Positions 1-51,978 of a stretch of 64,000 bases of DNA are shown here, piece after piece. The DNA is from Escherichia phage P896: the sequence record OL451225.1; one strand, written 5' to 3'. The position numbers and the translations under genes were made by a program. The notes beneath the pieces were generated by a model. The model ran no database searches. It was not told where the DNA came from and saw nothing but the letters and a program-made list of their open reading frames with translations. The stretch's first letter is position 1. The number at the start of each line of letters is the position of its first letter.

Positions 1-513
1 CCCAGGGAATTTATGCAACTGGGTAAAGTCGCCATCTGAAGAAACAACCATAATCGGATGGCCGAGACCAGTGAGCAATTTTGTTAATACTGCAATATGG
101 TCATCAGCCTCGACTTTATCTATATTCATCACGATGTAAGGCATATGTTTTTCCATTTCATCGATGATGATGTGCATAGCAGCATGTAGACCTTCCCAAT
201 CAAATTGAGACTCTTCACGAGCTTTCGCACGGTTTTTCTTATAATAATAAGATTTTGTGCGGCGCCAATAGCCATTCTTCGAGTTATCAACACAAATAAT
301 TGGAATTGTATAACCAAGCTTCTTGAACTGCACAATATTTTTTCGGATAGAGTTCAGAACCAGATGTCTAGTCATTGCAGTTGTTACCTTCGGAAAGCCT
401 GCGTCTTTGCCGAATTCCTGGAAGGCGGCTGCCATAATAAGCTGGCTAAAATCGAGTAACAGAAAACCATCTTTTTGACGGTCTTCTTCGGGGAGTAAAA
501 AATCTAAATTCAT
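1..513 (-). CDS. rnh: RNase H (5'-3' exonuclease / flap endonuclease), N-terminal part; gene continues beyond window start
   Basis: Reverse-strand translation from ATG at 513 reads MNLDFLLPEEDRQKDGFLLLDFSQ...GYWRRTKSYYYKKNRAKAREESQFDWEG...EADDHIAVL...SSDGDFTQLHKFPG with no stop to the window edge; matches T4 RNase H as I recall it; lies directly upstream of gene 34 as in T4. Not in the ORF track because it is truncated. Confidence 0.8.
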   Translation of the reverse strand, partial: MNLDFLLPEEDRQKDGFLLLDFSQLIMAAAFQEFGKDAGFPKVTTAMTRHLVLNSIRKNIVQFKKLGYTIPIICVDNSKNGYWRRTKSYYYKKNRAKAREESQFDWEGLHAAMHIIIDEMEKHMPYIVMNIDKVEADDHIAVLTKLLTGLGHPIMVVSSDGDFTQLHKFPG

Positions 514-23140: not shown

Positions 23141-24973
23141 TTATAGCGTCGCATTCATCCAATCTTTACGCTGTTGGGAATCTTTACCGAATAGCATTTC
23201 GAACAGTTCTTTCCAGTTATCAGGCAATTGAACAACTTCGAATACCGGCTCGAGCAATACGCGTTTGTACTCAGAATCTTCCAAAGAACCAAGCCCCTTG
23301 ATATATCGGATGGTGTGCTTCGGAAGTTTATCCTTAGCTTCTTCATAGTCAGGAAGAGAATAGAACCATTCTTGTTTGTCTTTGAGCTGCGCAATAATAA
23401 CAGGAGTTTTCACAAAGCGAATTCGTCCTTCATGGAACAGCTCTGGCCAGTTACTGAAAAACGCCAATAACGATGGATAGATACTACCGACACCATCCAC
23501 ATCCGCATCTGTCATGATAGCAATGTTTCGGTAATTCATATTCTTGGCCGGTTGTCCAATCGTTAACCCAGTAATTGCACACACATCAAAGGCTTCAGCG
23601 TTCTTCATAACTTCAACAGCTTTCAGACCCCATGTGTTTTTAAACTTACCACGTAATGGATAAGCACCTTGCAATTCACGGTCGCGAACCTTAATAAATG
23701 GCCCTGTTGCAGAATCACCTTCGGTCAGGAACAGAGTCGTTTCCAACTTATCATTGCCCCATTCGTTGGCTTTGATATGCTTTTGTACCTTGGCCTTTGA
23801 AGCTTTCTTATTTGCTTTAGTCTCTGCTGCTTTCTCTGCAGCCAATTTACGGGCTAATGCAGCTTCAACAATCGGCATAATCAGCGGTTCATTTTTCAGA
23901 ATAGCTTGTGCGATTTTCTTGGCATCAATCTTGATGTGATTTCGAATTTCACCGGCCGGAGAAGTCAATCGCTCCTTAGTCTGGGAATCAAATCGCATAT
24001 TGCTCATATCGCGGATGAACATAAGCATGGTGAGGCATTCTTTAACTCGTGCCTTGGTCACCTCAATGCCTTTATATTTGCGCTTAATCGCTGGTTGAAG
24101 ATGTTCGCAGATATCATCCATAACACATTCAACGTGGTGCCCGCCATTCTTTGTATGAATGTTGTTGACATAAGTCAACTGACGAAAACCATCCGGGCTA
24201 GTCGTAAAGGCCATCGATACCGTATCAGTTTCCTGGATAACAACTTCGGTTCCAAATTGCTTGGAGAACTTCTTGAAGTTGCCATCAACCTTTTTACCAT
24301 TAAAGGTAAACTGAATATCCGGATAAACAACTGCAAGAGTCTGTAGACGGTCCAATGTAATATCCAGATAAATCTGGGACAGACTATTTTCTTCAAAGTG
24401 ACTAAAGTCTGGAATAAATATAACAGTCGTACCTTTACCCTTTGATTTCTTAGTCGACCAACATTTGTTTTCCATACCGTTGGAGCAGTTAACAGTGATT
24501 TCATTTGCACCATCAGCGGTAATCCCGGTGAACAATACAGAGAAAATATTAGTCAGAGAAGACCCGACGCCATTCATCCCGCCAGTTTTACGTTCAGCAT
24601 CATCGCCAAAGTTGCCACCTGCTTTTGGAATAGTCCATGCTGCAACAGGGCCAGGGATTTGTTCACCGTTTTGGTCTGTAACCATTGCTTGTGGAATACC
24701 ACGGCCATTATCAGAAACCGAAATCTGATTATCTTTAATTTGGACATCAATTTTATTGGCAAATTTAAAACTGGTGCGAATTGCTTCATCAACAGAGTTA
24801 TCGATAATTTCATCAATCAGTTTTACAATACCAGGAACATAGCTTACGGACTTATATTCACCAAACAAGAATCGCTCATGCGCTTCATTTGAACTGGAAC
24901 CAATATACATCCCGGAACGTTTTTTGATATGCTCGACGTCCGAGAGTACTTTAATTTCATTATTAATCATCAT
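23141..24973 (-). CDS. 39: DNA topoisomerase II large subunit, unsplit (T4 gp39 + gp60 equivalent; GyrB-like ATPase plus Toprim)
   Basis: Single 610 aa ORF with GHKL ATPase motifs (IDNSVDEA, DNGRGIP, GGMNGVGSS) and a Toprim-type C-terminal half (LFLTEGDSA...); T4 splits this into 39 (about 516 aa) and 60 (160 aa). Confidence 0.9.
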   Translation of the reverse strand: MMINNEIKVLSDVEHIKKRSGMYIGSSSNEAHERFLFGEYKSVSYVPGIVKLIDEIIDNSVDEAIRTSFKFANKIDVQIKDNQISVSDNGRGIPQAMVTDQNGEQIPGPVAAWTIPKAGGNFGDDAERKTGGMNGVGSSLTNIFSVLFTGITADGANEITVNCSNGMENKCWSTKKSKGKGTTVIFIPDFSHFEENSLSQIYLDITLDRLQTLAVVYPDIQFTFNGKKVDGNFKKFSKQFGTEVVIQETDTVSMAFTTSPDGFRQLTYVNNIHTKNGGHHVECVMDDICEHLQPAIKRKYKGIEVTKARVKECLTMLMFIRDMSNMRFDSQTKERLTSPAGEIRNHIKIDAKKIAQAILKNEPLIMPIVEAALARKLAAEKAAETKANKKASKAKVQKHIKANEWGNDKLETTLFLTEGDSATGPFIKVRDRELQGAYPLRGKFKNTWGLKAVEVMKNAEAFDVCAITGLTIGQPAKNMNYRNIAIMTDADVDGVGSIYPSLLAFFSNWPELFHEGRIRFVKTPVIIAQLKDKQEWFYSLPDYEEAKDKLPKHTIRYIKGLGSLEDSEYKRVLLEPVFEVVQLPDNWKELFEMLFGKDSQQRKDWMNATL

Positions 24974-25014
24974 CTTTCCTCTTGTGTATGGAGGTATTAT
25001 AAGTCACATATTTT

Positions 25015-25038
25015 AAAGCAAAAAGGCCCGAAGGCCTT
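25015..25038 (-). terminator. Intrinsic terminator-like hairpin
   Basis: aggcccgaaggcct hairpin followed on the minus strand by a T-run, at the 3' end of the lipoprotein gene. Confidence 0.5.
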
Positions 25039-25481: not shown

Positions 25482-25856
25482 TTATTCCTTAAAGTGTGCT
25501 TTCAACATCTGGTAAACGGTCCAGGCTTCAGAGTTATTAGAAATGGTGATTTTAGTCAAAGGGAATTCGCTTGGTTCAAATGCTTCATCAGCGTCTTCGC
25601 ATTCGTCTTCAGTATCGTCATCTTTTTCTTCTTCAAAGAAACGACGCTCATCTTCCTTTATGAATATTCTCTCCATTCCACCGGTCGAAAATTCTATCCG
25701 ATATACATCACCGCCTTCAATTCCGACTGGTCTAAATCCTTCACCATTGATTATAGCATCAGCTATATTATCATTATCAGAGCATAACAAACGAAATCTG
25801 CTTTCAGCAACATTATCTTTAAAATAATACCATTTATCAGTTTCAAATTTCAACAT
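25482..25856 (-). CDS. Hypothetical acidic protein
   Basis: Track ORF 25482..25979; likely start at the internal ATG (MLKFETDKWYYF...) to avoid a long overlap with the upstream gene; acidic C-terminal stretch. Confidence 0.45.
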   Translation of the reverse strand: MLKFETDKWYYFKDNVAESRFRLLCSDNDNIADAIINGEGFRPVGIEGGDVYRIEFSTGGMERIFIKEDERRFFEEEKDDDTEDECEDADEAFEPSEFPLTKITISNNSEAWTVYQMLKAHFKE

Positions 25857-26073
25857 GATAAGTCTCCTTCCAAAAATCTGTACCATCTTCTGATTCTTCG
25901 CGGAACAGTGCATAGCTAGGTAATTCCGCACCTTCATACGCATACACATAAATGATATCAGTGGTGCAAAGAAATTCATTGATGTTTTTCTTCACAATCA
26001 CTTTATCACTTTCAGCGGTTTCCCAGAACTCTTCAGCGGTCAGGGAAGTGGTCACACAATCTTCATTAAACAT
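25843..26073 (-). CDS. Hypothetical protein
   Basis: 76 aa ORF in track. Confidence 0.45.
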   Translation of the reverse strand: MFNEDCVTTSLTAEEFWETAESDKVIVKKNINEFLCTTDIIYVYAYEGAELPSYALFREESEDGTDFWKETYHVEI

Positions 26074-26120: not shown

Positions 26121-26612
26121 TTAGGCAAAATGAATATCAGCATACTCAACGATAAAGCTTTCAGGAACAACCTTAAAGGTTCCAAGGAACACAATATTAT
26201 ACAATTTAACCCCTTCTTCAACCCACTGGTCGGTGATGTAACCGGACATACTAGTGGTTTCATAAGTCGGACCATACATGCAATTGTATTCAAACGGTTT
26301 AGGTGAAACAAAAAAGACACCTTTGCCCAATTTCCATTTAAAATCAACCCCAACATGAGACTGGTCAATGGTTTCAACGTCTTCGGCCACAGGAGCGATG
26401 TACCCAGTAAATTCGGTTGATTCCAGGAATTTAGGATGCACATAAGCCAATTGAGTTTCAGTCTGACCATGTTTAGGAATAATACGCACTTTAACTTCTT
26501 TAATTCCGCCTACTAAATTAGTGCGAAGACTCACAACCTCAACAAAACGACCAGCCGCTTTAGAACGAGATTCTTTAGAAACACGTACAATATCACCAGC
26601 TTCAACTTTCAT
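26121..26612 (-). CDS. Hypothetical protein (MotB-position; paralogous C-terminal domain with 26689..27444)
   Basis: 163 aa; C-terminus GYITDQWVEEGVKLYNIVFLGTFKVVPESFIVEY resembles the C-terminus of the adjacent 251 aa protein. Confidence 0.55.
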   Translation of the reverse strand: MKVEAGDIVRVSKESRSKAAGRFVEVVSLRTNLVGGIKEVKVRIIPKHGQTETQLAYVHPKFLESTEFTGYIAPVAEDVETIDQSHVGVDFKWKLGKGVFFVSPKPFEYNCMYGPTYETTSMSGYITDQWVEEGVKLYNIVFLGTFKVVPESFIVEYADIHFA

Positions 26613-26654
26613 AATTTTCTCTCTTGGTTAATAAATTTATTCTCCAGTGGGGTC

Positions 26655-26695
26655 ATTATACTCTGACCCCAAGAGTTTGTACACAAATTTAATTA
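26655..26695 (-). promoter_or_regulatory. Early promoter cassette (TGTACA / 17 bp / TATAAT inside an inverted repeat), PeSL-like
   Basis: Minus strand: aatttgTGTACAaactcttGGGGTCAgagTATAATGACCCCactggagaa; near-identical to the cassette at 16051-16095. Confidence 0.6.
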
Positions 26696-27444
26696 AAAAT
26701 TTCAACAACCATGGAACGTGGTACAACAGTAAATTCACCAGCATGGACAACGTTCAGGAGTTCAACACCATCTTCAATCCACTGGTCTGTTACCCAACCA
26801 CAAATGGAACTATTAAATGGACGTTTGATTTGAACTGGTTTGCACAACAAGTCAATAGGGTCACCCAGTTCGCTAACTTCTTTCAGCAGTACAGATTCAC
26901 GCGGATAAAGGATAGCTTCAAGATTGTCACCTGATTCATTGACTGCAGTAAATTCAAAGATGCTTTGGTGATTGTGGTACTTAACTGTTTTAACGGTAAA
27001 TGGAGTAAATCCAAAAATACCTTTTAGTACACGCCAACCAGCATGCATTGCAACGGTCTTTCCAAACTGACTGGCATCTTCAATAAGCTGATAGGTTTTA
27101 CCAACTTTGATAGGAGTTTCTTCAACTTCTTTGAAGAGTTCAATCTCAGCTTCATAAACCATAATTTTTTCTACTTCATTTGTATCAAGGCGACGTGCAT
27201 GTAGAATATATGCTTTATCAAACCAGTTACTTTTTACAAAAGTTTCAACAATAAATTCACCTTCGCCTAAAGCATCAGTCAGAGTATTATACCCAGAAAC
27301 CATAGCTGCATTTTGAATAATAGGTTCAATCAGTTGATAAGTTTTGTTAATTTCAATAGTCATATTTTGTTTCTCAAGTTTTAATGGTTTAATTGGGCGA
27401 ACATACATACTTACAACATCAAAGTCAATAAATTCTGGTTTCAT
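26689..27444 (-). CDS. Hypothetical protein with internal duplication and a C-terminal domain paralogous to 26121..26612
   Basis: 251 aa; two KTYQLIE-containing segments; C-terminus GWVTDQWIEDGVELLNVVHAGEFTVVPRSMVVE. Confidence 0.55.
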   Translation of the reverse strand: MKPEFIDFDVVSMYVRPIKPLKLEKQNMTIEINKTYQLIEPIIQNAAMVSGYNTLTDALGEGEFIVETFVKSNWFDKAYILHARRLDTNEVEKIMVYEAEIELFKEVEETPIKVGKTYQLIEDASQFGKTVAMHAGWRVLKGIFGFTPFTVKTVKYHNHQSIFEFTAVNESGDNLEAILYPRESVLLKEVSELGDPIDLLCKPVQIKRPFNSSICGWVTDQWIEDGVELLNVVHAGEFTVVPRSMVVEIFN

Positions 27445-27701
27445 TATGCAACCTTATTGAACATCGCCAGTTGATTAGGTTGTACAACCATAATTTCACG
27501 ACGACCTTTTGTATTTGACACGTTCAGGTAGATGCCTTTGTTCATGTCTGTTTCTTTATCATATACCGCAATTTTATTGACAGTAAAGATTTTACCACGA
27601 ATATTTGCAAATGCACATTCAAACGCTTTAGTCAGACCTGCTTCAGCAGCTTGAAGAGCGGACATTTCATATTGTTGGCCAATTTCAAAAGAAGTAATCA
27701 T
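27444..27701 (-). CDS. Hypothetical protein (85 aa)
   Basis: Track ORF 27444..27749; likely start is the ATG at 27701 (MITSFEIG...), preceded by a promoter cassette and the ATCAACTACTGATGAGGA leader. Confidence 0.5.
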   Translation of the reverse strand: MITSFEIGQQYEMSALQAAEAGLTKAFECAFANIRGKIFTVNKIAVYDKETDMNKGIYLNVSNTKGRREIMVVQPNQLAMFNKVA

Positions 27702-27732
27702 TTTGTTGTCCTCATCAGTAGTTGATGAGATG

Positions 27733-27772
27733 ATTATGTCTCTTTCCATTGGCCTTGTACACTACTTTTTAT
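27733..27772 (-). promoter_or_regulatory. Early promoter cassette (TGTACA / 17 bp / CATAAT) with ATCAACTACTG leader
   Basis: Minus strand: aaaaagtagTGTACAaggccaatggaaagagaCATAATcatctcATCAACTACTGATGAGGAcaacaaaATG. Confidence 0.6.
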
Positions 27773-28452
27773 CGTTTTTTCGGCAAAGATAATGGGTCTG
27801 CATCTTCTTCGGAAGGAACTTCATCTAAACCAAGGGCATAGCGCTGGGCATACTTCAACATCAAAATATCTTTCGCGCAGTCATGTACCGAATCGTGCGC
27901 CACGAATCCATCTAAAGTCCCCTTTGGTAATGGAGTTTCACACATTTTACGGACGAGTGACAGGGCTTCGATTGCTGTTCTGATATCTCGCTGGTTCCAG
28001 AATACAACCGGCTCCAGGTTATAGGTATTCAATTCGCGCTCAGGAATCCCCTCATTGCGCTGTAGGTCACGGATAAGGTCAACAAACAACGGGAAGTCAA
28101 AAGACATTCCACGACACCACATAAGGCTTTCGTATTTGTTAATTCCATTACCATTCAGATAATCAATTGCCTGTTGGATACCAGTTAAAGTATCAACATC
28201 TTGCGCAGAAGGGACCAGGTTAACACGTGCTTCTGCTGATTGCTTTTTCCACCAATCCATGGTTGTTGTATCGAACAGACGCTTACCTTTTTGGTATTCA
28301 AGGCTGAACTTGATACGTTTGCCGCGATTAACTAGGGTTTCGAATGATTCCACAATAGCAGGGTCAGATTCGAATGTAATCAGAGCCAGGTCAATAACGG
28401 CTCCCTTCGAGCCGTTTCCCAGAGTTTCAAAGTCAATAATAGCATCAATCAT
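27769..28452 (-). CDS. dexA: Exonuclease A DexA (DnaQ-like 3'-5' exonuclease)
   Basis: 227 aa (T4 DexA 227 aa); N-terminal DxE exonuclease motif (MIDAIIDFETLGN) and C-terminal H...D motif (HDSVHDCAKD). Confidence 0.85.
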   Translation of the reverse strand: MIDAIIDFETLGNGSKGAVIDLALITFESDPAIVESFETLVNRGKRIKFSLEYQKGKRLFDTTTMDWWKKQSAEARVNLVPSAQDVDTLTGIQQAIDYLNGNGINKYESLMWCRGMSFDFPLFVDLIRDLQRNEGIPERELNTYNLEPVVFWNQRDIRTAIEALSLVRKMCETPLPKGTLDGFVAHDSVHDCAKDILMLKYAQRYALGLDEVPSEEDADPLSLPKKR

Positions 28453-49387: not shown

Positions 49388-49819
49388 TTAAGCAACAACT
49401 GCCATTTGTTTGCGGATAGCTTCTGGAAGAGATTCAATATACTCTGGAAGTTGCGCAGCAATAATAGAACCAGCTTGCACCAGATGGTCGTCAGAGTTAA
49501 CACAATAATCATCTTCAAGACGTTCGGAACCGTCGCGGTCGATAACCAGTTTAGCACCAGCAGCCAGTGAATCGTTGTAGTGATTGCGCATCAGTTCAAT
49601 CCACTTATCAGATACATCAGTATCAATCACACCATACAACATGAATTTAACTTCTTGAGGAAGTGATTTCAAACGGGTGGCAGATGCTTCATCACATGCC
49701 AGGACCCAGGATTTGCGGACGCGGTTTTGGTTATGTGGGTTGGCGTCGGTGCGGATGGTTTTAACTTGGATATCTTTAGCAGTTACGTTGTTCATAATAT
49801 TCTCTCTATTCATTATCAA
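49388..49819 (-). CDS. rpbA: RNA polymerase-binding protein RpbA (candidate)
   Basis: 143 aa ORF between 45 and 46 (T4 RpbA about 129 aa); positional. Confidence 0.5.
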   Translation of the reverse strand: MIMNRENIMNNVTAKDIQVKTIRTDANPHNQNRVRKSWVLACDEASATRLKSLPQEVKFMLYGVIDTDVSDKWIELMRNHYNDSLAAGAKLVIDRDGSERLEDDYCVNSDDHLVQAGSIIAAQLPEYIESLPEAIRKQMAVVA

Positions 49820-50071
49820 TTAATCAAAGTATTCATATGCAAACCAGGCTTTGTGTCTGTTCGCGATTATTTTAACATATTCTTCACCGAAAGCGTTTTG
49901 TAAGTCACGTTCAGTAACAAGGTGTTCATCTTTCGAAAAGGTATTAACTAACACATACCGTTTAATTTCAGGGACAGCCAGTAAATGCTGCCCGGTTAAG
50001 AAGTCAGCCATAATAGCCTCTATTATAACATCCTTGTTTAAAGCATTATTCCATAACAGTGAATCGACCAA
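49820..50071 (-). CDS. Hypothetical protein (45.2 position)
   Basis: 83 aa ORF in track. Confidence 0.45.
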   Translation of the reverse strand: MVDSLLWNNALNKDVIIEAIMADFLTGQHLLAVPEIKRYVLVNTFSKDEHLVTERDLQNAFGEEYVKIIANRHKAWFAYEYFD

Positions 50072-51728
50072 CTTTTTTCATCTGGAGATGTTGCCCGTAT
50101 GCTTCCGGGTCATGGTCTCGGTGACTGATAATAAAGATGTTGGTGTCTTCCAATTTGTTCAGGATGGTAGCAATTGCTTTAACCCCCTCTACATCAGTAG
50201 CTGAATCGAAAACTTCGTCCAGAATCAAGGTGTTAATATTAACACCAGATACTTTCGCAGCAATATCACGCCATGTAAACAGCAATGCAATATCGATACG
50301 AGCTTTTTCACCTTGGCTAAATGATGCATAGCTGAAGTCTTCACGTCCACGAGATTTAATCGTTTCGTTGAACTCTTCATCTAACGTAAAACTATAATCA
50401 GCTTCCATAACTTTAAGGTAAGCGTTTATCTGCTTATTAAAGATAGGAATATATTTCTTAATAATAGCACCTTTGATACCGGAATCTTTCAACATATCCG
50501 TTAGGATACCACGTTGATATTTTTCCATCACAAGGTCGGATTTCTGTTTGACTATTTTATCAAGCTGGTCTTGAAGCATTTTAATGTCTGCCGCATGGTC
50601 AATGAATTCTGACTTAGCTTGCTCGATTAATGCTTTAACCTTTTTAGCTTTTTCGACAGTCTGGACTAAGGTTTGTTTCTTAGTTTGAATGTCTTGAGCT
50701 ATTGTACGTTGTTTTTGTCTTGCAGCAGAATACGCATCAAATTGCTCCTGAACAGCGTTCTGGCGAGCTTTATGGTTATCAGCTGATACATTACATTCTT
50801 CAATCTTTGACTCAATCCTGGCGACAATGGGGTCTCCTGGATGCAACTGACTGGCACAAGTCTGACAACAACCACCTTTCTCGTACAGACCAACAACCTT
50901 TCGGTAATCGTCTATCTTCGACTTAATCAGGAATGATTCCTGCTTTAACTTCGTGAGTTCATGCTCAGGGTCTTCTCCCAAGATTATCTCGGTCAGTCTT
51001 GTCGTTGCTTCTTCGATAGTCGTTTTGATTCCACGTGCTTCCGTAGCAAGTTCATCATACATCGTTTGTAGCCGCAACAGATTATCACCTGATAATTTTC
51101 TTTGACGGTCTTCGTTGTCCTGATAGATTTTAATCTGTTGAACAATACCATCATGCTGCACATCCATCACCTGGATTTGACTATTGACTTCGCGGATAAG
51201 AGATTTGTTCAGCTTATCCATATCGGCCAGTACAGAAACCTCTAAAAGGTCTTCGACAAGTTTTCTTCTTGCAGGAGTGGATAGGCCCATAAAAGGGGTA
51301 TATCCAGCTGTGCCGAGTACGACAATCTGTTTGAAGCTTGCATAGGACATTCCGATAAGCTGTTCAAATTCCGCTTGGAAGTCTTTACTGCTGGCAGATT
51401 CATCAAGACGTTTACCGCCACAAGAGATTTCAAAAACATTGGGTTTTTGCCCGCGTTTGATATAGTATTCTTTTCCATCATATTCCATCCACAATTCAAC
51501 GAGCATATCTTTTTTGTTGCTCGAGTTAATCAACTGGCCTTTCTTTACATCACGGAAAGGCTTACCGAACATAGCAAAGGTAACCGCTTCAAGGAACGTA
51601 GATTTACCCGCGCCATTCTTACCGGTGACCAGAGTTTTTTGGACTTTATCCAGTTCAACAGTAATCGGTTGAGCACCAACCGACATAATATTTTTATAGA
51701 TAACTTTCTTAAGCTTAAAAGTCTTCAT
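50046..51728 (-). CDS. 46: Recombination endonuclease subunit gp46 (Rad50/SbcC-like)
   Basis: Track ORF 50046..51740; likely start at ATG 51728 (MKTFKLKKVIYKNIMSVG...), giving 560 aa (T4 gp46 560 aa); Walker A GKNGAGKST, signature FSQGEKARIDIALL, Walker B LILDEVFD. Confidence 0.92.
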   Translation of the reverse strand: MKTFKLKKVIYKNIMSVGAQPITVELDKVQKTLVTGKNGAGKSTFLEAVTFAMFGKPFRDVKKGQLINSSNKKDMLVELWMEYDGKEYYIKRGQKPNVFEISCGGKRLDESASSKDFQAEFEQLIGMSYASFKQIVVLGTAGYTPFMGLSTPARRKLVEDLLEVSVLADMDKLNKSLIREVNSQIQVMDVQHDGIVQQIKIYQDNEDRQRKLSGDNLLRLQTMYDELATEARGIKTTIEEATTRLTEIILGEDPEHELTKLKQESFLIKSKIDDYRKVVGLYEKGGCCQTCASQLHPGDPIVARIESKIEECNVSADNHKARQNAVQEQFDAYSAARQKQRTIAQDIQTKKQTLVQTVEKAKKVKALIEQAKSEFIDHAADIKMLQDQLDKIVKQKSDLVMEKYQRGILTDMLKDSGIKGAIIKKYIPIFNKQINAYLKVMEADYSFTLDEEFNETIKSRGREDFSYASFSQGEKARIDIALLFTWRDIAAKVSGVNINTLILDEVFDSATDVEGVKAIATILNKLEDTNIFIISHRDHDPEAYGQHLQMKKVGRFTVME

Positions 51729-51978
51729 CGTAATAAGCATCCTTGATACATGATTCAGCCATATGGATTAATGCCTCTGGAGTATCATCTTCCATTACAT
51801 TAAAGCTAAATTCCACGGCCCAATCGGTGACTACATAGACTTTGATAAGTTGACCAGTTTCCCGGTCAGTGATAGCTTCAAACCAATACTTAATAGTATT
51901 CGGTTGATTATCGTCGTCAACCACATCACATTCGCGGATATGCTCAAGTCCCGCTTCATTAAAATCATAAAGTCTCAT
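51715..51978 (-). CDS. Hypothetical protein (46.1 position)
   Basis: 87 aa ORF in track. Confidence 0.45.
   Translation of the reverse strand: MRLYDFNEAGLEHIRECDVVDDDNQPNTIKYWFEAITDRETGQLIKVYVVTDWAVEFSFNVMEDDTPEALIHMAESCIKDAYYDEDF

Follow-up and report, generated by a model that had tools for sequence, protein, structure and literature searches.

Two adjacent genes of Escherichia phage P896 (OL451225.1) encode proteins with similar C-terminal sequences, and the larger protein contains one short segment twice. The locus raises the questions of which family these proteins belong to and how the larger one acquired its layout. The window (the whole stretch of DNA analysed, 64,000 nt) comes from a Gaprivervirus, a T4-like phage with approximately 96-97% identity to Escherichia phage 212 and Shigella phage SP18. 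The two proteins, ORF163 and ORF251, are taken, with a probability of roughly 85%, to be the Gaprivervirus orthologues of the products of the T4 early genes motB and motB.1, and to belong to a modular family defined by one small, strongly conserved C-terminal beta-domain. The features of the locus are listed in Table 1.

Table 1. Features of the motB region in window coordinates; gene names follow the orthology proposed in the text.
Feature	Residues	Position	Strand	Basis or property
goF orthologue, 124 aa		25482-25856	minus	phrog_622 E 1.9e-29; same gene cluster
ORF163, motB orthologue, 163 aa		26121-26612	minus	Pfam PF17613, phrog_1671
MotB basic N-terminal domain, "KOW-like" in the literature	1-60		minus	net charge +5
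MotB acidic linker	61-85		minus	net charge -5
MotB C-terminal domain	86-163	26124-26357	minus	net charge -3; dN/dS 0.08 within Gaprivervirus
MotB core most conserved with MotB.1	119-156	26145-26258	minus	BLASTP E 1e-12
Promoter-like site, sigma-70-type, TGTACA-17-TATAAT, in the motB.1-motB spacer		26655-26683	minus	consensus scan 10/12
ORF251, motB.1 orthologue, 251 aa, Gaprivervirus two-barrel form		26689-27444	minus	phrog_2333 E 9e-79
MotB.1 N-terminal extension with conserved motif IDFDVVSMYVRPIKPL, predicted disordered	1-27	27364-27444	minus	pLDDT <50
Barrel 1, common MotB.1 N-terminal barrel subtype	28-109	27118-27363	minus	pLDDT 81-90
Barrel 2, second subtype	110-192	26869-27117	minus	pLDDT 53-81
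MotB-type C-terminal domain of MotB.1	193-251	26692-26868	minus	five short beta-strands, pLDDT 77-84
ORF101 (phrog_17795), candidate free-standing barrel		27444-27749	minus	probably 85 aa from M17 (27701)

The initial annotation had described the two genes as adjacent paralogues with a common C-terminal domain. Both reading frames and the peptides it quoted were found, and the C-terminal cores of MotB and ORF251 are identical at 20 of 38 positions, with 76% positives (BLASTP with compositional adjustment, E 1e-12). A core of just 38 aa might suggest that the resemblance is due to chance or to composition, the latter being the outcome that the initial annotation had named as fatal to its claim. 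The probability of this is negligible. The C-terminal regions align with a Smith-Waterman score of 119; shuffled sequences average 21.3 (sd 4.1), which gives z = 23.8, and none of 2000 shuffles attains the observed score, so that composition is not the explanation. The curated Pfam model of motB, moreover, matches both proteins above its cut-off of 25 bits, and 27 diverse C-terminal domains of MotB and MotB.1 show no variation in the columns D, W, E, G, L, N, V, G and V. In the alignment of these 27 domains the homology spans approximately 57 aa (residues 193-251 of ORF251 and 86-163 of MotB), the MotB domain carrying an insertion of approximately 20 aa after the first strand relative to MotB.1.

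The Pfam model also tells the two proteins apart. ORF163 matches PF17613 with residues 1-162 over a model of 162 positions (E 7.7e-52, 175.8 bits), while ORF251 matches with residues 211-247 alone (E 1.3e-8, 35.3 bits). As the latter match is confined to model positions 118-154, ORF251 shares the domain and is not itself a MotB orthologue. A profile of the C-terminal domain matched ORF163, ORF251 and nothing else in the window. Among 1.84 billion representative proteins it matched only 35 clusters, with N-termini of KOW type, barrel type or hybrid type. The domain was matched in 767 phage records; their organism names indicate enterobacterial hosts, and all of the records opened are Tevenvirinae. 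The modular C-terminal-domain family is confined to T4-like phages. When all of the 686 six-frame ORFs of the window were scanned with HMMs, no copies beyond the known ORFs were detected. A marginal match at 49820-50071 (E 0.026), located between large ORFs at 49388-49819 and 50046-51740, was dismissed as chance.

The initial annotation had advised a check for homologues of T4 MotB. ORF163 is MotB itself: it shares 54% identity with T4 MotB (E 2e-58), matches phrog_1671 with E 2.4e-67, and the gene is labelled motB in SP18, VR7 and VR26. Within the dexA-39 cluster it is flanked by motB.1 and cef, as in T4. The order dexA-(x)-motB.1-motB-cef-goF-39.2-39.1-39 is kept in SP18, RZ, VR7, VR25, VR26, T4 and metagenomic contigs. 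The promoter-like site is no more than a pattern match, one that would fit the status of T4 motB as an early gene (PMC6070864). The KOW-like N-terminal motif of MotB is an HHpred assignment (PMC7827196); a Pfam scan at E <= 1 gave no match to the KOW family in ORF163, and the N-terminal motif is kept with T4. A PDB sequence search found no solved structure for MotB. Across MotB orthologues the pI ranges from 4.7 to 9.5, a spread that calls for caution against assuming that every orthologue is basic and coats the nucleoid like T4 MotB.

ORF251 combines a match to phrog_2333, a MotB-type C-terminal domain and a place directly upstream of motB. The gene at its position is labelled motB.1 in SP18 and VR7, and PF17613 is found in all of its 191 homologues. 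Foldseek matched the ORF251 model to T4 MotB.1 (P39415, E 1e-6) and to other MotB.1 proteins; a sequence search of the PDB gave chance-level matches alone (E 0.027). The AlphaFold2 model, of moderate confidence (mean pLDDT 73.7), shows two repeats of one fold and, after them, a C-terminal domain of five strands. Barrel 1 has the order strand-helix-three strands-helix-strand and barrel 2 follows in matching order; the C-terminal strands are modelled at residues 203-206, 214-224, 227-234, 237-242 and 246-248. In 68 homologues the stretch from C215 to G236 is almost invariant, and residues D7, D9, S12, Y14, K19, P20 and L21 of the N-terminal extension are at least 90% conserved (68 sequences). 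The motif of the extension also occurs in proteins that join a MotB-like N-terminus to the C-terminal domain. Within Gaprivervirus, dN/dS is 0.10 for barrel 1, 0.32 for barrel 2 and 0.18 for the C-terminal domain of MotB.1; with values of 0.08-0.32 in every module, purifying selection acts throughout.

The larger protein had been described as internally duplicated on the strength of two segments containing KTYQLIE. These segments (residues 34-40 and 115-121) indeed each head a unit of approximately 82 aa, and the two units are collinear. Residues 28-109 and 110-192 share 35% identity in an alignment of 83 columns (E 1e-7). In the shuffle test z was 11.8, and none of 2000 shuffles scored as high; hhalign gave a probability of 97% (E 7e-11), and reciprocal HMM searches gave matches of 1e-6 and 1e-5. 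The further claim, of a locally duplicated and diversifying family in the 39-dexA region, was borne out as to diversification and not as to local origin, the closer relatives of the units being single barrels of other phages. The single barrel of the 141-, 180- and 248-aa MotB.1 forms of other genera is 60-65% identical to barrel 1. Barrel 2 is 56% identical to the single barrel of a metagenomic MotB.1 (P0095), which another phage carries at the corresponding place in the locus, and barrel 2 together with the C-terminal domain is 45% identical to a full-length T4-type MotB.1 (P0250; E 2e-34). By pairwise scores, each barrel is closer to single barrels elsewhere than to the other barrel.

A recent in-gene tandem duplication of one barrel in this lineage, followed by fast divergence, is a very improbable origin for this layout. 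It would explain why the units are adjacent and collinear, start alike with KTYQLIE and end alike with L(F/L)KEV(E/S)E, why the two-barrel form is limited to one genus, and why barrel 2 evolves faster than barrel 1. The units are, however, just approximately 35% identical, and each has the closer outside relatives named above, so that both units predate the Gaprivervirus architecture. The preferred reading of ORF251 is a tandem of two barrel subtypes that diverged long ago, and its layout most likely arose, to judge from the sequences, by recombination of these subtypes and not by recent duplication in place. The two-barrel form was found in 33 of 50,697 phage records; those opened (VR26, VR7 and VR25) are Gaprivervirus, like SP18 and RZ, and two-barrel MotB.1 is confined to this genus. 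The MotB.1 length classes of 141, approximately 180, approximately 248, 251 and 165 aa differ in their N-terminal modules. The extra N-terminal domain of the form of approximately 248 aa ('MNTFD...') was suspected of being a fused ORF101 equivalent; sequence comparison linked it significantly neither to ORF101 nor to the barrels.

ORF101, the gene upstream of motB.1, probably encodes a barrel of the MotB.1 N-terminal type that stands on its own. Its stop codon overlaps the motB.1 start (TAATG), and GAGG is located 8 nt before M17. The AlphaFold2 model (pLDDT 65) has the strand and helix order of the barrels, with the first helix split in two. Its best non-self Foldseek matches in BFVD are T4 MotB.1 (E 2.9e-4, TM 0.53) and other MotB.1 proteins (up to 1e-3). 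Semi-global alignment with barrel 2 gave a marginal z = 6.0 (one of 3000 shuffles scored as high), and the full-length comparison with a pan-barrel profile a marginal hhalign E of 8e-4 (probability 25%). BLASTP found nothing between ORF101 and ORF251 or barrel 2, local Smith-Waterman alignment gave weak scores (z = 1.9 for barrel 1 and 3.7 for barrel 2), and first-pass hhalign showed no relationship. A consistent signal came solely from the pan-barrel profile, the semi-global alignment and the structure search. ORF101 has homologues in six clusters only, all at least 88% identical, and its dN/dS is 0.15. GoF, encoded in the same cluster, is a published relative of the MotB.1 barrel, the family kinship being claimed in PMC12152347. 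Barrel 1 matches the GoF family phrog_622 weakly (E 0.008), barrel 2 matches the GoF N-terminal domain with an hhalign E of 5e-4 (probability 32%), and the pan-barrel profile matches GoF with E 1.8e-3 (probability 15%). The Pfam search gave no match to LSm or Hfq.

T4 MotB is a non-essential early protein that binds DNA tightly without sequence preference (PMC6070864, PMC7827196). According to PMC6070864, PMC7827196 and PMC12449154, it copurifies with H-NS and changes the footprints of that protein; it also relieves silencing by H-NS, and it doubles the burst size. Deletion of T4 motB.1 left burst size and latent period at wild-type values, and an RNA reporter assay showed little effect of T4 MotB.1 or of wild-type GoF (PMC12152347). 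The constructs of that study were built from NC_000866.4. The T4 reference motB.1 is frameshifted inside the C-terminal domain, which shortens the annotated protein to 119 aa, and the published negative phenotypes may therefore describe a crippled allele. Full-length MotB.1 forms such as ORF251 are better subjects for study than the T4 allele.

The proposed mechanism is modular. In MotB the C-terminal domain is joined to a basic N-terminal domain described as KOW-like in the literature, whereas in MotB.1 it follows a single LSm/SH3-like barrel, or several, of the GoF/MotB.1/Frd.2 type. In Gaprivervirus MotB.1 the predicted order is disordered motif, barrel subtype 1, barrel subtype 2 and C-terminal domain. 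The N-terminal modules may supply differing activities, the basic KOW-like domain contacting DNA and the acidic barrels contacting protein or RNA. The shared C-terminal domain is tentatively regarded as a common docking or oligomerisation module, which would bind the same protein or nucleoprotein partner or pair with itself; since it is acidic in both window proteins and near-invariant in MotB.1, this role is likelier than that of a DNA-binding surface.

An OB-fold, possibly DNA-binding, was predicted by HHpred for residues 69-149 of T4 MotB, and either domain of that protein could bind DNA (PMC7827196). This prediction for the C-terminal domain conflicts with the docking role. It would make the shared domain a DNA-binding OB-fold, a type of five-stranded Greek-key barrel of approximately 70-80 aa, and MotB.1 a second MotB-like nucleoid- or DNA-binding protein, in agreement with the tight DNA binding of T4 MotB (PMC6070864) and with conserved aromatic residues (GW/Y.TDQW) of a kind able to stack on bases. 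Such a function is unlikely: the domain has a net charge of -3 in MotB and -4 in MotB.1, and the MotB.1 homologues are uniformly acidic (pI 4.6-5.2 in 120 of 120). In addition, the modelled MotB.1 domain has five short strands in approximately 46 aa, and no OB-fold is among the 50 PDB matches listed for a query with the whole ORF251 model.

The resemblance of the barrels to LSm/SH3 folds also allows MotB.1 to be viewed as an Hfq-like RNA-binding chaperone, in which two barrels per chain could mimic a dimer and form a pseudo-dimeric RNA surface. A mutant form of the related GoF protein, GoF(D25Y), stabilises an mRNA (PMC12152347), which speaks for this role. It is nevertheless doubtful, as the RNA reporter assay mentioned above responded little to the wild-type proteins, the AlphaFold3 multimers of the T4 proteins were not confident (PMC12152347), the barrels of ORF251 are acidic or neutral (net charge -9 and 0), and their structural matches are generic small barrels.

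The Gaprivervirus dexA-39 cluster could be a small-barrel shuffling locus, a possibility put at somewhat less than even. A near-invariant C-terminal anchor would be combined there with interchangeable N-terminal modules, comprising a KOW-like domain, at least three GoF-type barrel subtypes in one or two copies, and a conserved disordered D-x-D-V-x-S-M-Y peptide. Through the shared C-terminal domain, MotB and MotB.1 would have one target in common, and ORF101 would be a free-standing member of the barrel family not recognised before, with translational coupling to motB.1.

The C-terminal domain shared by MotB and MotB.1 was already published in 2021 (PMC7827196, the supplement of which includes the SP18 orthologue), as was the LSm/SH3-like barrel of MotB.1 in 2025 (PMC12152347). 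The details not reported before are the tandem barrels of MotB.1 in this lineage and the upstream ORF101, probably another barrel, which is without assignment to the GoF/MotB.1 family in the sources consulted. The frameshift in the T4 reference motB.1 is also added here. For annotation, ORF163 becomes MotB, ORF251 becomes two-barrel MotB.1, and ORF101 receives a provisional link to the GoF/MotB.1 barrel family. The value of these results is practical, for annotation and for the design of experiments; they open no long-standing question.

Compared with known systems, ORF163 resembles T4 MotB in length (163 versus 162 aa), in the N-terminal RVSxxSRSKAAG motif and in the C-terminal domain. It differs in being acidic overall (pI 5.8, net charge -3) where the T4 protein is basic (pI 9.23, net charge +6), so that carrying over charge-driven DNA binding is uncertain. 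The linker insert of approximately 21 aa in MotB of RZ and JS98 is absent from ORF163. ORF251 shares with T4 MotB.1 and phrog_2333 (Categories 2 and 4 of PMC7827196) the place directly upstream of motB, a nearly invariant C-terminal domain and the same type of N-terminal barrel. T4-type MotB.1 has a single N-terminal barrel (residues 1-82 in T4), whereas ORF251 has two of different subtypes and a 27-aa N-terminal motif. It is an architectural variant within the MotB.1 family and is not excluded from it.

Each repeat of ORF251 is modelled as five strands and two helices, matching the bent five-stranded antiparallel beta-sheet predicted for the GoF/MotB.1/Frd.2 LSm-like family. The repeats are modelled as five-stranded small barrels like the members of that family, and Foldseek recovers T4 MotB.1; the available text of PMC12152347 describes one barrel per protein there and mentions no tandem barrels. 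The best PDB folds for the whole ORF251 model are the KOW repeats of Spt5/NusG, the tandem Tudor of 53BP1, Agenet and Spindlin (E 9e-5 to 1e-3). The sequence identity to these cellular SH3-like arrays is 9-15%, the whole-model TM is 0.17-0.24, and Pfam detects no KOW or Tudor motif; what ORF251 has in common with them is several barrels of 50-80 aa in series, a likeness to KOW, Tudor and Agenet arrays that is one of fold class and not of membership.

The two adjacent genes ORF163 and ORF251 encode proteins with related C-termini, as proposed in the initial annotation. Residues 119-156 of ORF163 and 211-248 of ORF251 are identical at 20 of 38 positions, with 29/38 positives (BLASTP, E 1e-12), and the local alignment score of 119 lies 23.8 standard deviations above the shuffle mean, well beyond chance. 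Compositional bias alone does not explain the similarity, since the E-value includes compositional adjustment and 0 of 2000 shuffles scored as high. When 27 non-redundant C-terminal domains of both families are aligned, the homology extends over the entire small domain, which consists of a first strand (D-F/P-x-x-x-L-G/C-x-x-V) and a core (G-W/Y-V/I-T-D-Q-W-V/I-E-D/E-G-V-K/E-L-Y/L-N-V/I-V-x-x-G-x-F-x-V-V-P-E/R-S), with some 20 inserted residues between the two in MotB.

The suspected relation to T4 MotB is borne out. ORF163 is identified as MotB by Pfam PF17613 (whole model, E 7.7e-52), phrog_1671 (E 2.4e-67) and 54% full-length identity to T4 MotB. ORF251 matches phrog_2333 (E 9e-79) and is annotated motB.1 in phages SP18 and VR7; the Pfam motB model reaches only its last 40 residues.

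The segment 25000-28500 matches 391 phage records in megablast, best Escherichia phage 212 (97.0%) and Shigella phage SP18 (96.3%), each with 100% query coverage. SP18 and vB_EcoM_RZ are classified in the genus Gaprivervirus, subfamily Tevenvirinae. Every gene of the region lies on the minus strand, in the T4 order 39-39.1-39.2-goF-cef-motB-motB.1-motB.2-dexA. Between genes 39 and 39.1 the window has a short spacer only (compare L001 1475-1945 and L002 777-1953, two comparison loci). Here SP18 carries an additional 132-aa ORF similar to RB69ORF005c, and RZ carries such an ORF plus a 235-aa gene annotated 'endonuclease VII'; the megablast matches are in multiple pieces because of these extra ORFs. 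The longest goF ORF, of 165 aa (ATG at 25979; 25482-25979), would cover cef for the most part; starting at 25856 instead gives 124 aa, in agreement with the SP18 annotation and with phrog_622 matched full-length. GoF-like genes at this position vary highly in length among related phages, from about 120 to 239 aa. Two promoter-like sites, which are pattern matches only, have in common the unusual -35 element GTGTACAA.

Table. Features of the gene 39-dexA region in the window
Feature	Coordinates	Strand	Remark
gene 39	23141-24973	minus	
spacer	24974-25036		between gene 39 and 39.1
39.1, then 39.2		minus	between gene 39 and goF
goF	25482-25856	minus	
cef	25843-26073	minus	
ORF163 (motB)	26121-26612	minus	
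promoter-like site	26655-26683	minus	TGTACA-17-TATAAT; just upstream of motB
ORF251 (motB.1)	26689-27444	minus	
ORF251 aa 1-27	27364-27444	minus	conserved peptide motif, predicted disordered
ORF101	27444-27749	minus	
ORF101 5' end	27701-27749	minus	alternative starts
promoter-like site	27733-27761	minus	TGTACA-17-CATAAT; just upstream of ORF101
dexA	27769-28452	minus	followed by a small ORF, then dda

A profile scan of the 64 kb detected no carriers of the C-terminal domain beyond MotB and ORF251. Against 1.84 billion representative proteins the profile found just 35 clusters at E <= 0.001; a few of these, large repetitive proteins of about 360-860 aa with short-stretch matches, were taken as spurious. 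True members are 100-250 aa long and combine a MotB-like N-terminus with a MotB-type C-terminal domain, a MotB-like N-terminus with a D-x-D-V-x-S-M-Y peptide and a MotB.1-type C-terminal domain, or barrels with the C-terminal domain. A tblastn search with one hybrid protein as query placed the family in 767 phage records, whose organism names point to phages of Escherichia, Shigella, Klebsiella, Yersinia, Salmonella and other enterobacterial hosts.

MotB.1 proteins form a modular family. All 191 homologues have the PF17613 C-terminal domain, which is near-invariant while the N-terminal modules are swapped, giving several length classes: 141 aa (one barrel and the C-terminal domain); about 180 aa, the most frequent form, with a 39-aa N-terminal extension ahead of these; about 248 aa, with another N-terminal domain, about 82 aa long, ahead of the 180-aa layout; 165 aa (homologue P0095), with extension, a different barrel and the C-terminal domain; and 251 aa, observed only in close relatives of the window, with extension, barrel 1, barrel 2 and the C-terminal domain. 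Residues 1-27 of ORF251 carry a conserved peptide motif that is predicted to be disordered, (I/V)-D-x-D-(V/I)-x-S-M-Y-x-x-P-x-K/L-P-L, which precedes the MotB.1 barrels. The motif, sometimes doubled, also stands between MotB-like N-terminus and C-terminal domain in the hybrid proteins P0252, P0254, P0255 and P0260-P0262, and between barrel and C-terminal domain in P0258. Its placement suggests a movable short linear motif.

The internal duplication noticed in ORF251 is likewise well beyond chance. Residues 30-109 and 111-193 are 35% identical (E 1e-7; shuffle z = 11.8), and profile-profile comparison gave a probability of 97% (E 7e-11). The repeat is real but old rather than locally duplicated, as each barrel has closer relatives in other phages. 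Identity is 60-65% between barrel 1 and the common barrel of other genera and 56% between barrel 2 and that of P0095, as against only 35-37% between barrels 1 and 2, and ORF251 thus reads as a tandem of two old barrel subtypes that also exist separately. Barrel 2 plus the C-terminal domain align with the full-length T4-type MotB.1 P0250 (144 aa) at 45% identity (E 2e-34). P0095 and other variants adjoin motB, in a position equivalent to that of ORF251, and the two-barrel architecture probably arose by recombination. Barrel 2 is present in 33 of 50,697 phage records (tblastn, 75-99% identity); those inspected (VR26, VR7, VR25) are Gaprivervirus, likewise SP18 and RZ.

The AlphaFold2 model of ORF251 (68-sequence alignment, mean pLDDT 73.7) shows residues 1-27 disordered, followed by two barrels of like element order: strand, helix, three strands, short helix, strand (pLDDT 81-90 in barrel 1, 53-81 in barrel 2). 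The C-terminal domain has five short strands within residues 203-248 (pLDDT 77-84). Foldseek hits among predicted viral structures were MotB.1 proteins, T4 P39415 (E 1e-6) among them, along with MotB-sized proteins and, from Serratia phage PS2, a 'KOW domain-containing protein'. The best PDB matches are chains of several SH3-like barrels, namely Spt5 KOW arrays, 53BP1 tandem Tudor, AGDP3 Agenet repeats and Spindlin; with E 9e-5 to 1e-3, identity of 9-15% and low global TM scores, they place the predicted structure in a fold class, not a family.

ORF101 has homologues in six clusters only, each at least 88% identical, and no Pfam family in a Pfam scan. Pairwise and first-pass profile comparisons with the MotB.1 barrels were negative or weak. 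Its AlphaFold2 model, of low to moderate confidence (pLDDT 65; 38 to 65 across five models), has the element order of those barrels. The top BFVD match after self is T4 MotB.1 (E 2.9e-4, TM 0.53), followed by a 166-aa Sf25 protein, PP01 MotB.1 and the window-type MotB.1. Semi-global alignment with barrel 2 gave z = 6.0, a score reached by 1 of 3000 shuffles, and a pan-barrel profile matched residues 17-100 (E 8e-4, probability 25%), comparable to the result for GoF, a published family member. ORF101 is likely to be a homologous free-standing barrel. Its stop codon shares nucleotides with the motB.1 start codon (TAATG), an arrangement suggestive of translational coupling. The longest ORF is of 101 aa; the M17 start (85 aa) is found in 4/6 homologous clusters and is preceded at 8 nt by GAGG (AAGG only at the upstream ATG), which points to 85 aa as the probable true product.

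Nei-Gojobori dN/dS among six Gaprivervirus genomes, given as crude averages over non-independent pairs, was 0.10 for barrel 1, 0.32 for barrel 2, 0.18 and 0.08 for the C-terminal domains of MotB.1 and MotB, 0.35 for the MotB.1 N-terminal extension and 0.15 for the ORF101 core. Every module looks functional by this measure. Homology, architecture and purifying selection are direct observations for MotB and MotB.1 of the window.

T4 MotB is toxic when expressed heterologously and binds DNA tightly with no sequence preference (PMC6070864, PMC7827196). According to these sources and to Son et al. 2021, as summarised in PMC12449154, H-NS copurifies with it, H-NS footprints are altered, H-NS-repressed host genes are up-regulated and burst size is doubled. 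By transfer from T4, MotB would be an early host-takeover protein acting on nucleoid and H-NS. As a caution, the MotB of the window has an acidic pI of 5.8 (net charge -3), against a basic 9.23 (net +6) in T4 MotB; 111 MotB orthologues span pI 4.7-9.5. The 183-190-aa MotB forms of RZ, JS98 and other related phages have an acidic linker insert of about 21 aa (VESHDGYVCESNDIRGVVAQD), which the 163-aa MotB of the window and SP18 lacks. The C-terminal domain may tentatively be considered a common docking or self-association module (probability about 0.4), with the N-terminal modules giving contact specificity. This is favored because the C-terminal domains are acidic (net charge -3 in window MotB, -4 in window MotB.1), the MotB N-terminal domain is basic (+5) and all MotB.1 homologues have a pI of 4.6-5.2, and because the C-terminal domain stays near-invariant in MotB.1 across the module swaps. 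A DNA-binding surface on the C-terminal domain itself, suggested by an OB-fold proposal in the literature, is the less likely alternative. An RNA-chaperone role of the barrels has a similarly low probability. The effect of MotB.1 on an RNA reporter was small, and motB.1 mutants of T4 show no laboratory phenotype (PMC12152347).

T4 MotB.1 as annotated has 119 aa and ends in GGWVTDQWIGRWR (NC_000866.4; L003, the T4 comparison locus, 2643-2860). The remainder of its C-terminal domain (EDGVELLNVVHAGEYSVVPRSAVVAILN, then a stop) follows directly downstream in the +1 frame, in the spacer before motB. Together with the existence of the unframeshifted P0250 and a tblastn match to T4 in two pieces, this indicates that the T4 reference motB.1 is frameshifted, or mis-sequenced, inside the domain that it has in common with MotB. 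The motB.1 constructs of PMC12152347 were built from NC_000866.4. In the chimeric metagenomic mini-ORF P0264 (43 aa), the N-terminal 14 residues of MotB.2 (MKIYRVESSFSIL.Y) run straight into the final 28 of the MotB.1 C-terminal domain. Evidently left behind by a deletion from motB.2 into motB.1, it is to be compared with the 29-aa RB69 peptide, 'Category 3' of PMC7827196, and illustrates the plasticity of the locus.

The observation of the motB/motB.1 pair is correct and already published: a conserved C-terminal domain in common, differing N-terminal domains and a proposed duplication were described in 2021, with 102 homologues in four categories and the SP18 orthologue of ORF251 (YP_003934637.1) listed in the supplement as covering 35% of MotB (PMC7827196). 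Tandem barrels go unmentioned in PMC12152347. Among the papers searched, MotB.1 is named in PMC7827196 and PMC12152347 only. Relative to the published pair, the additions are incremental: a two-barrel architecture limited to the genus and of probable recombination origin, ORF101 as a probable extra barrel, the conserved disordered peptide motif, and the apparent frameshift in the T4 reference motB.1.
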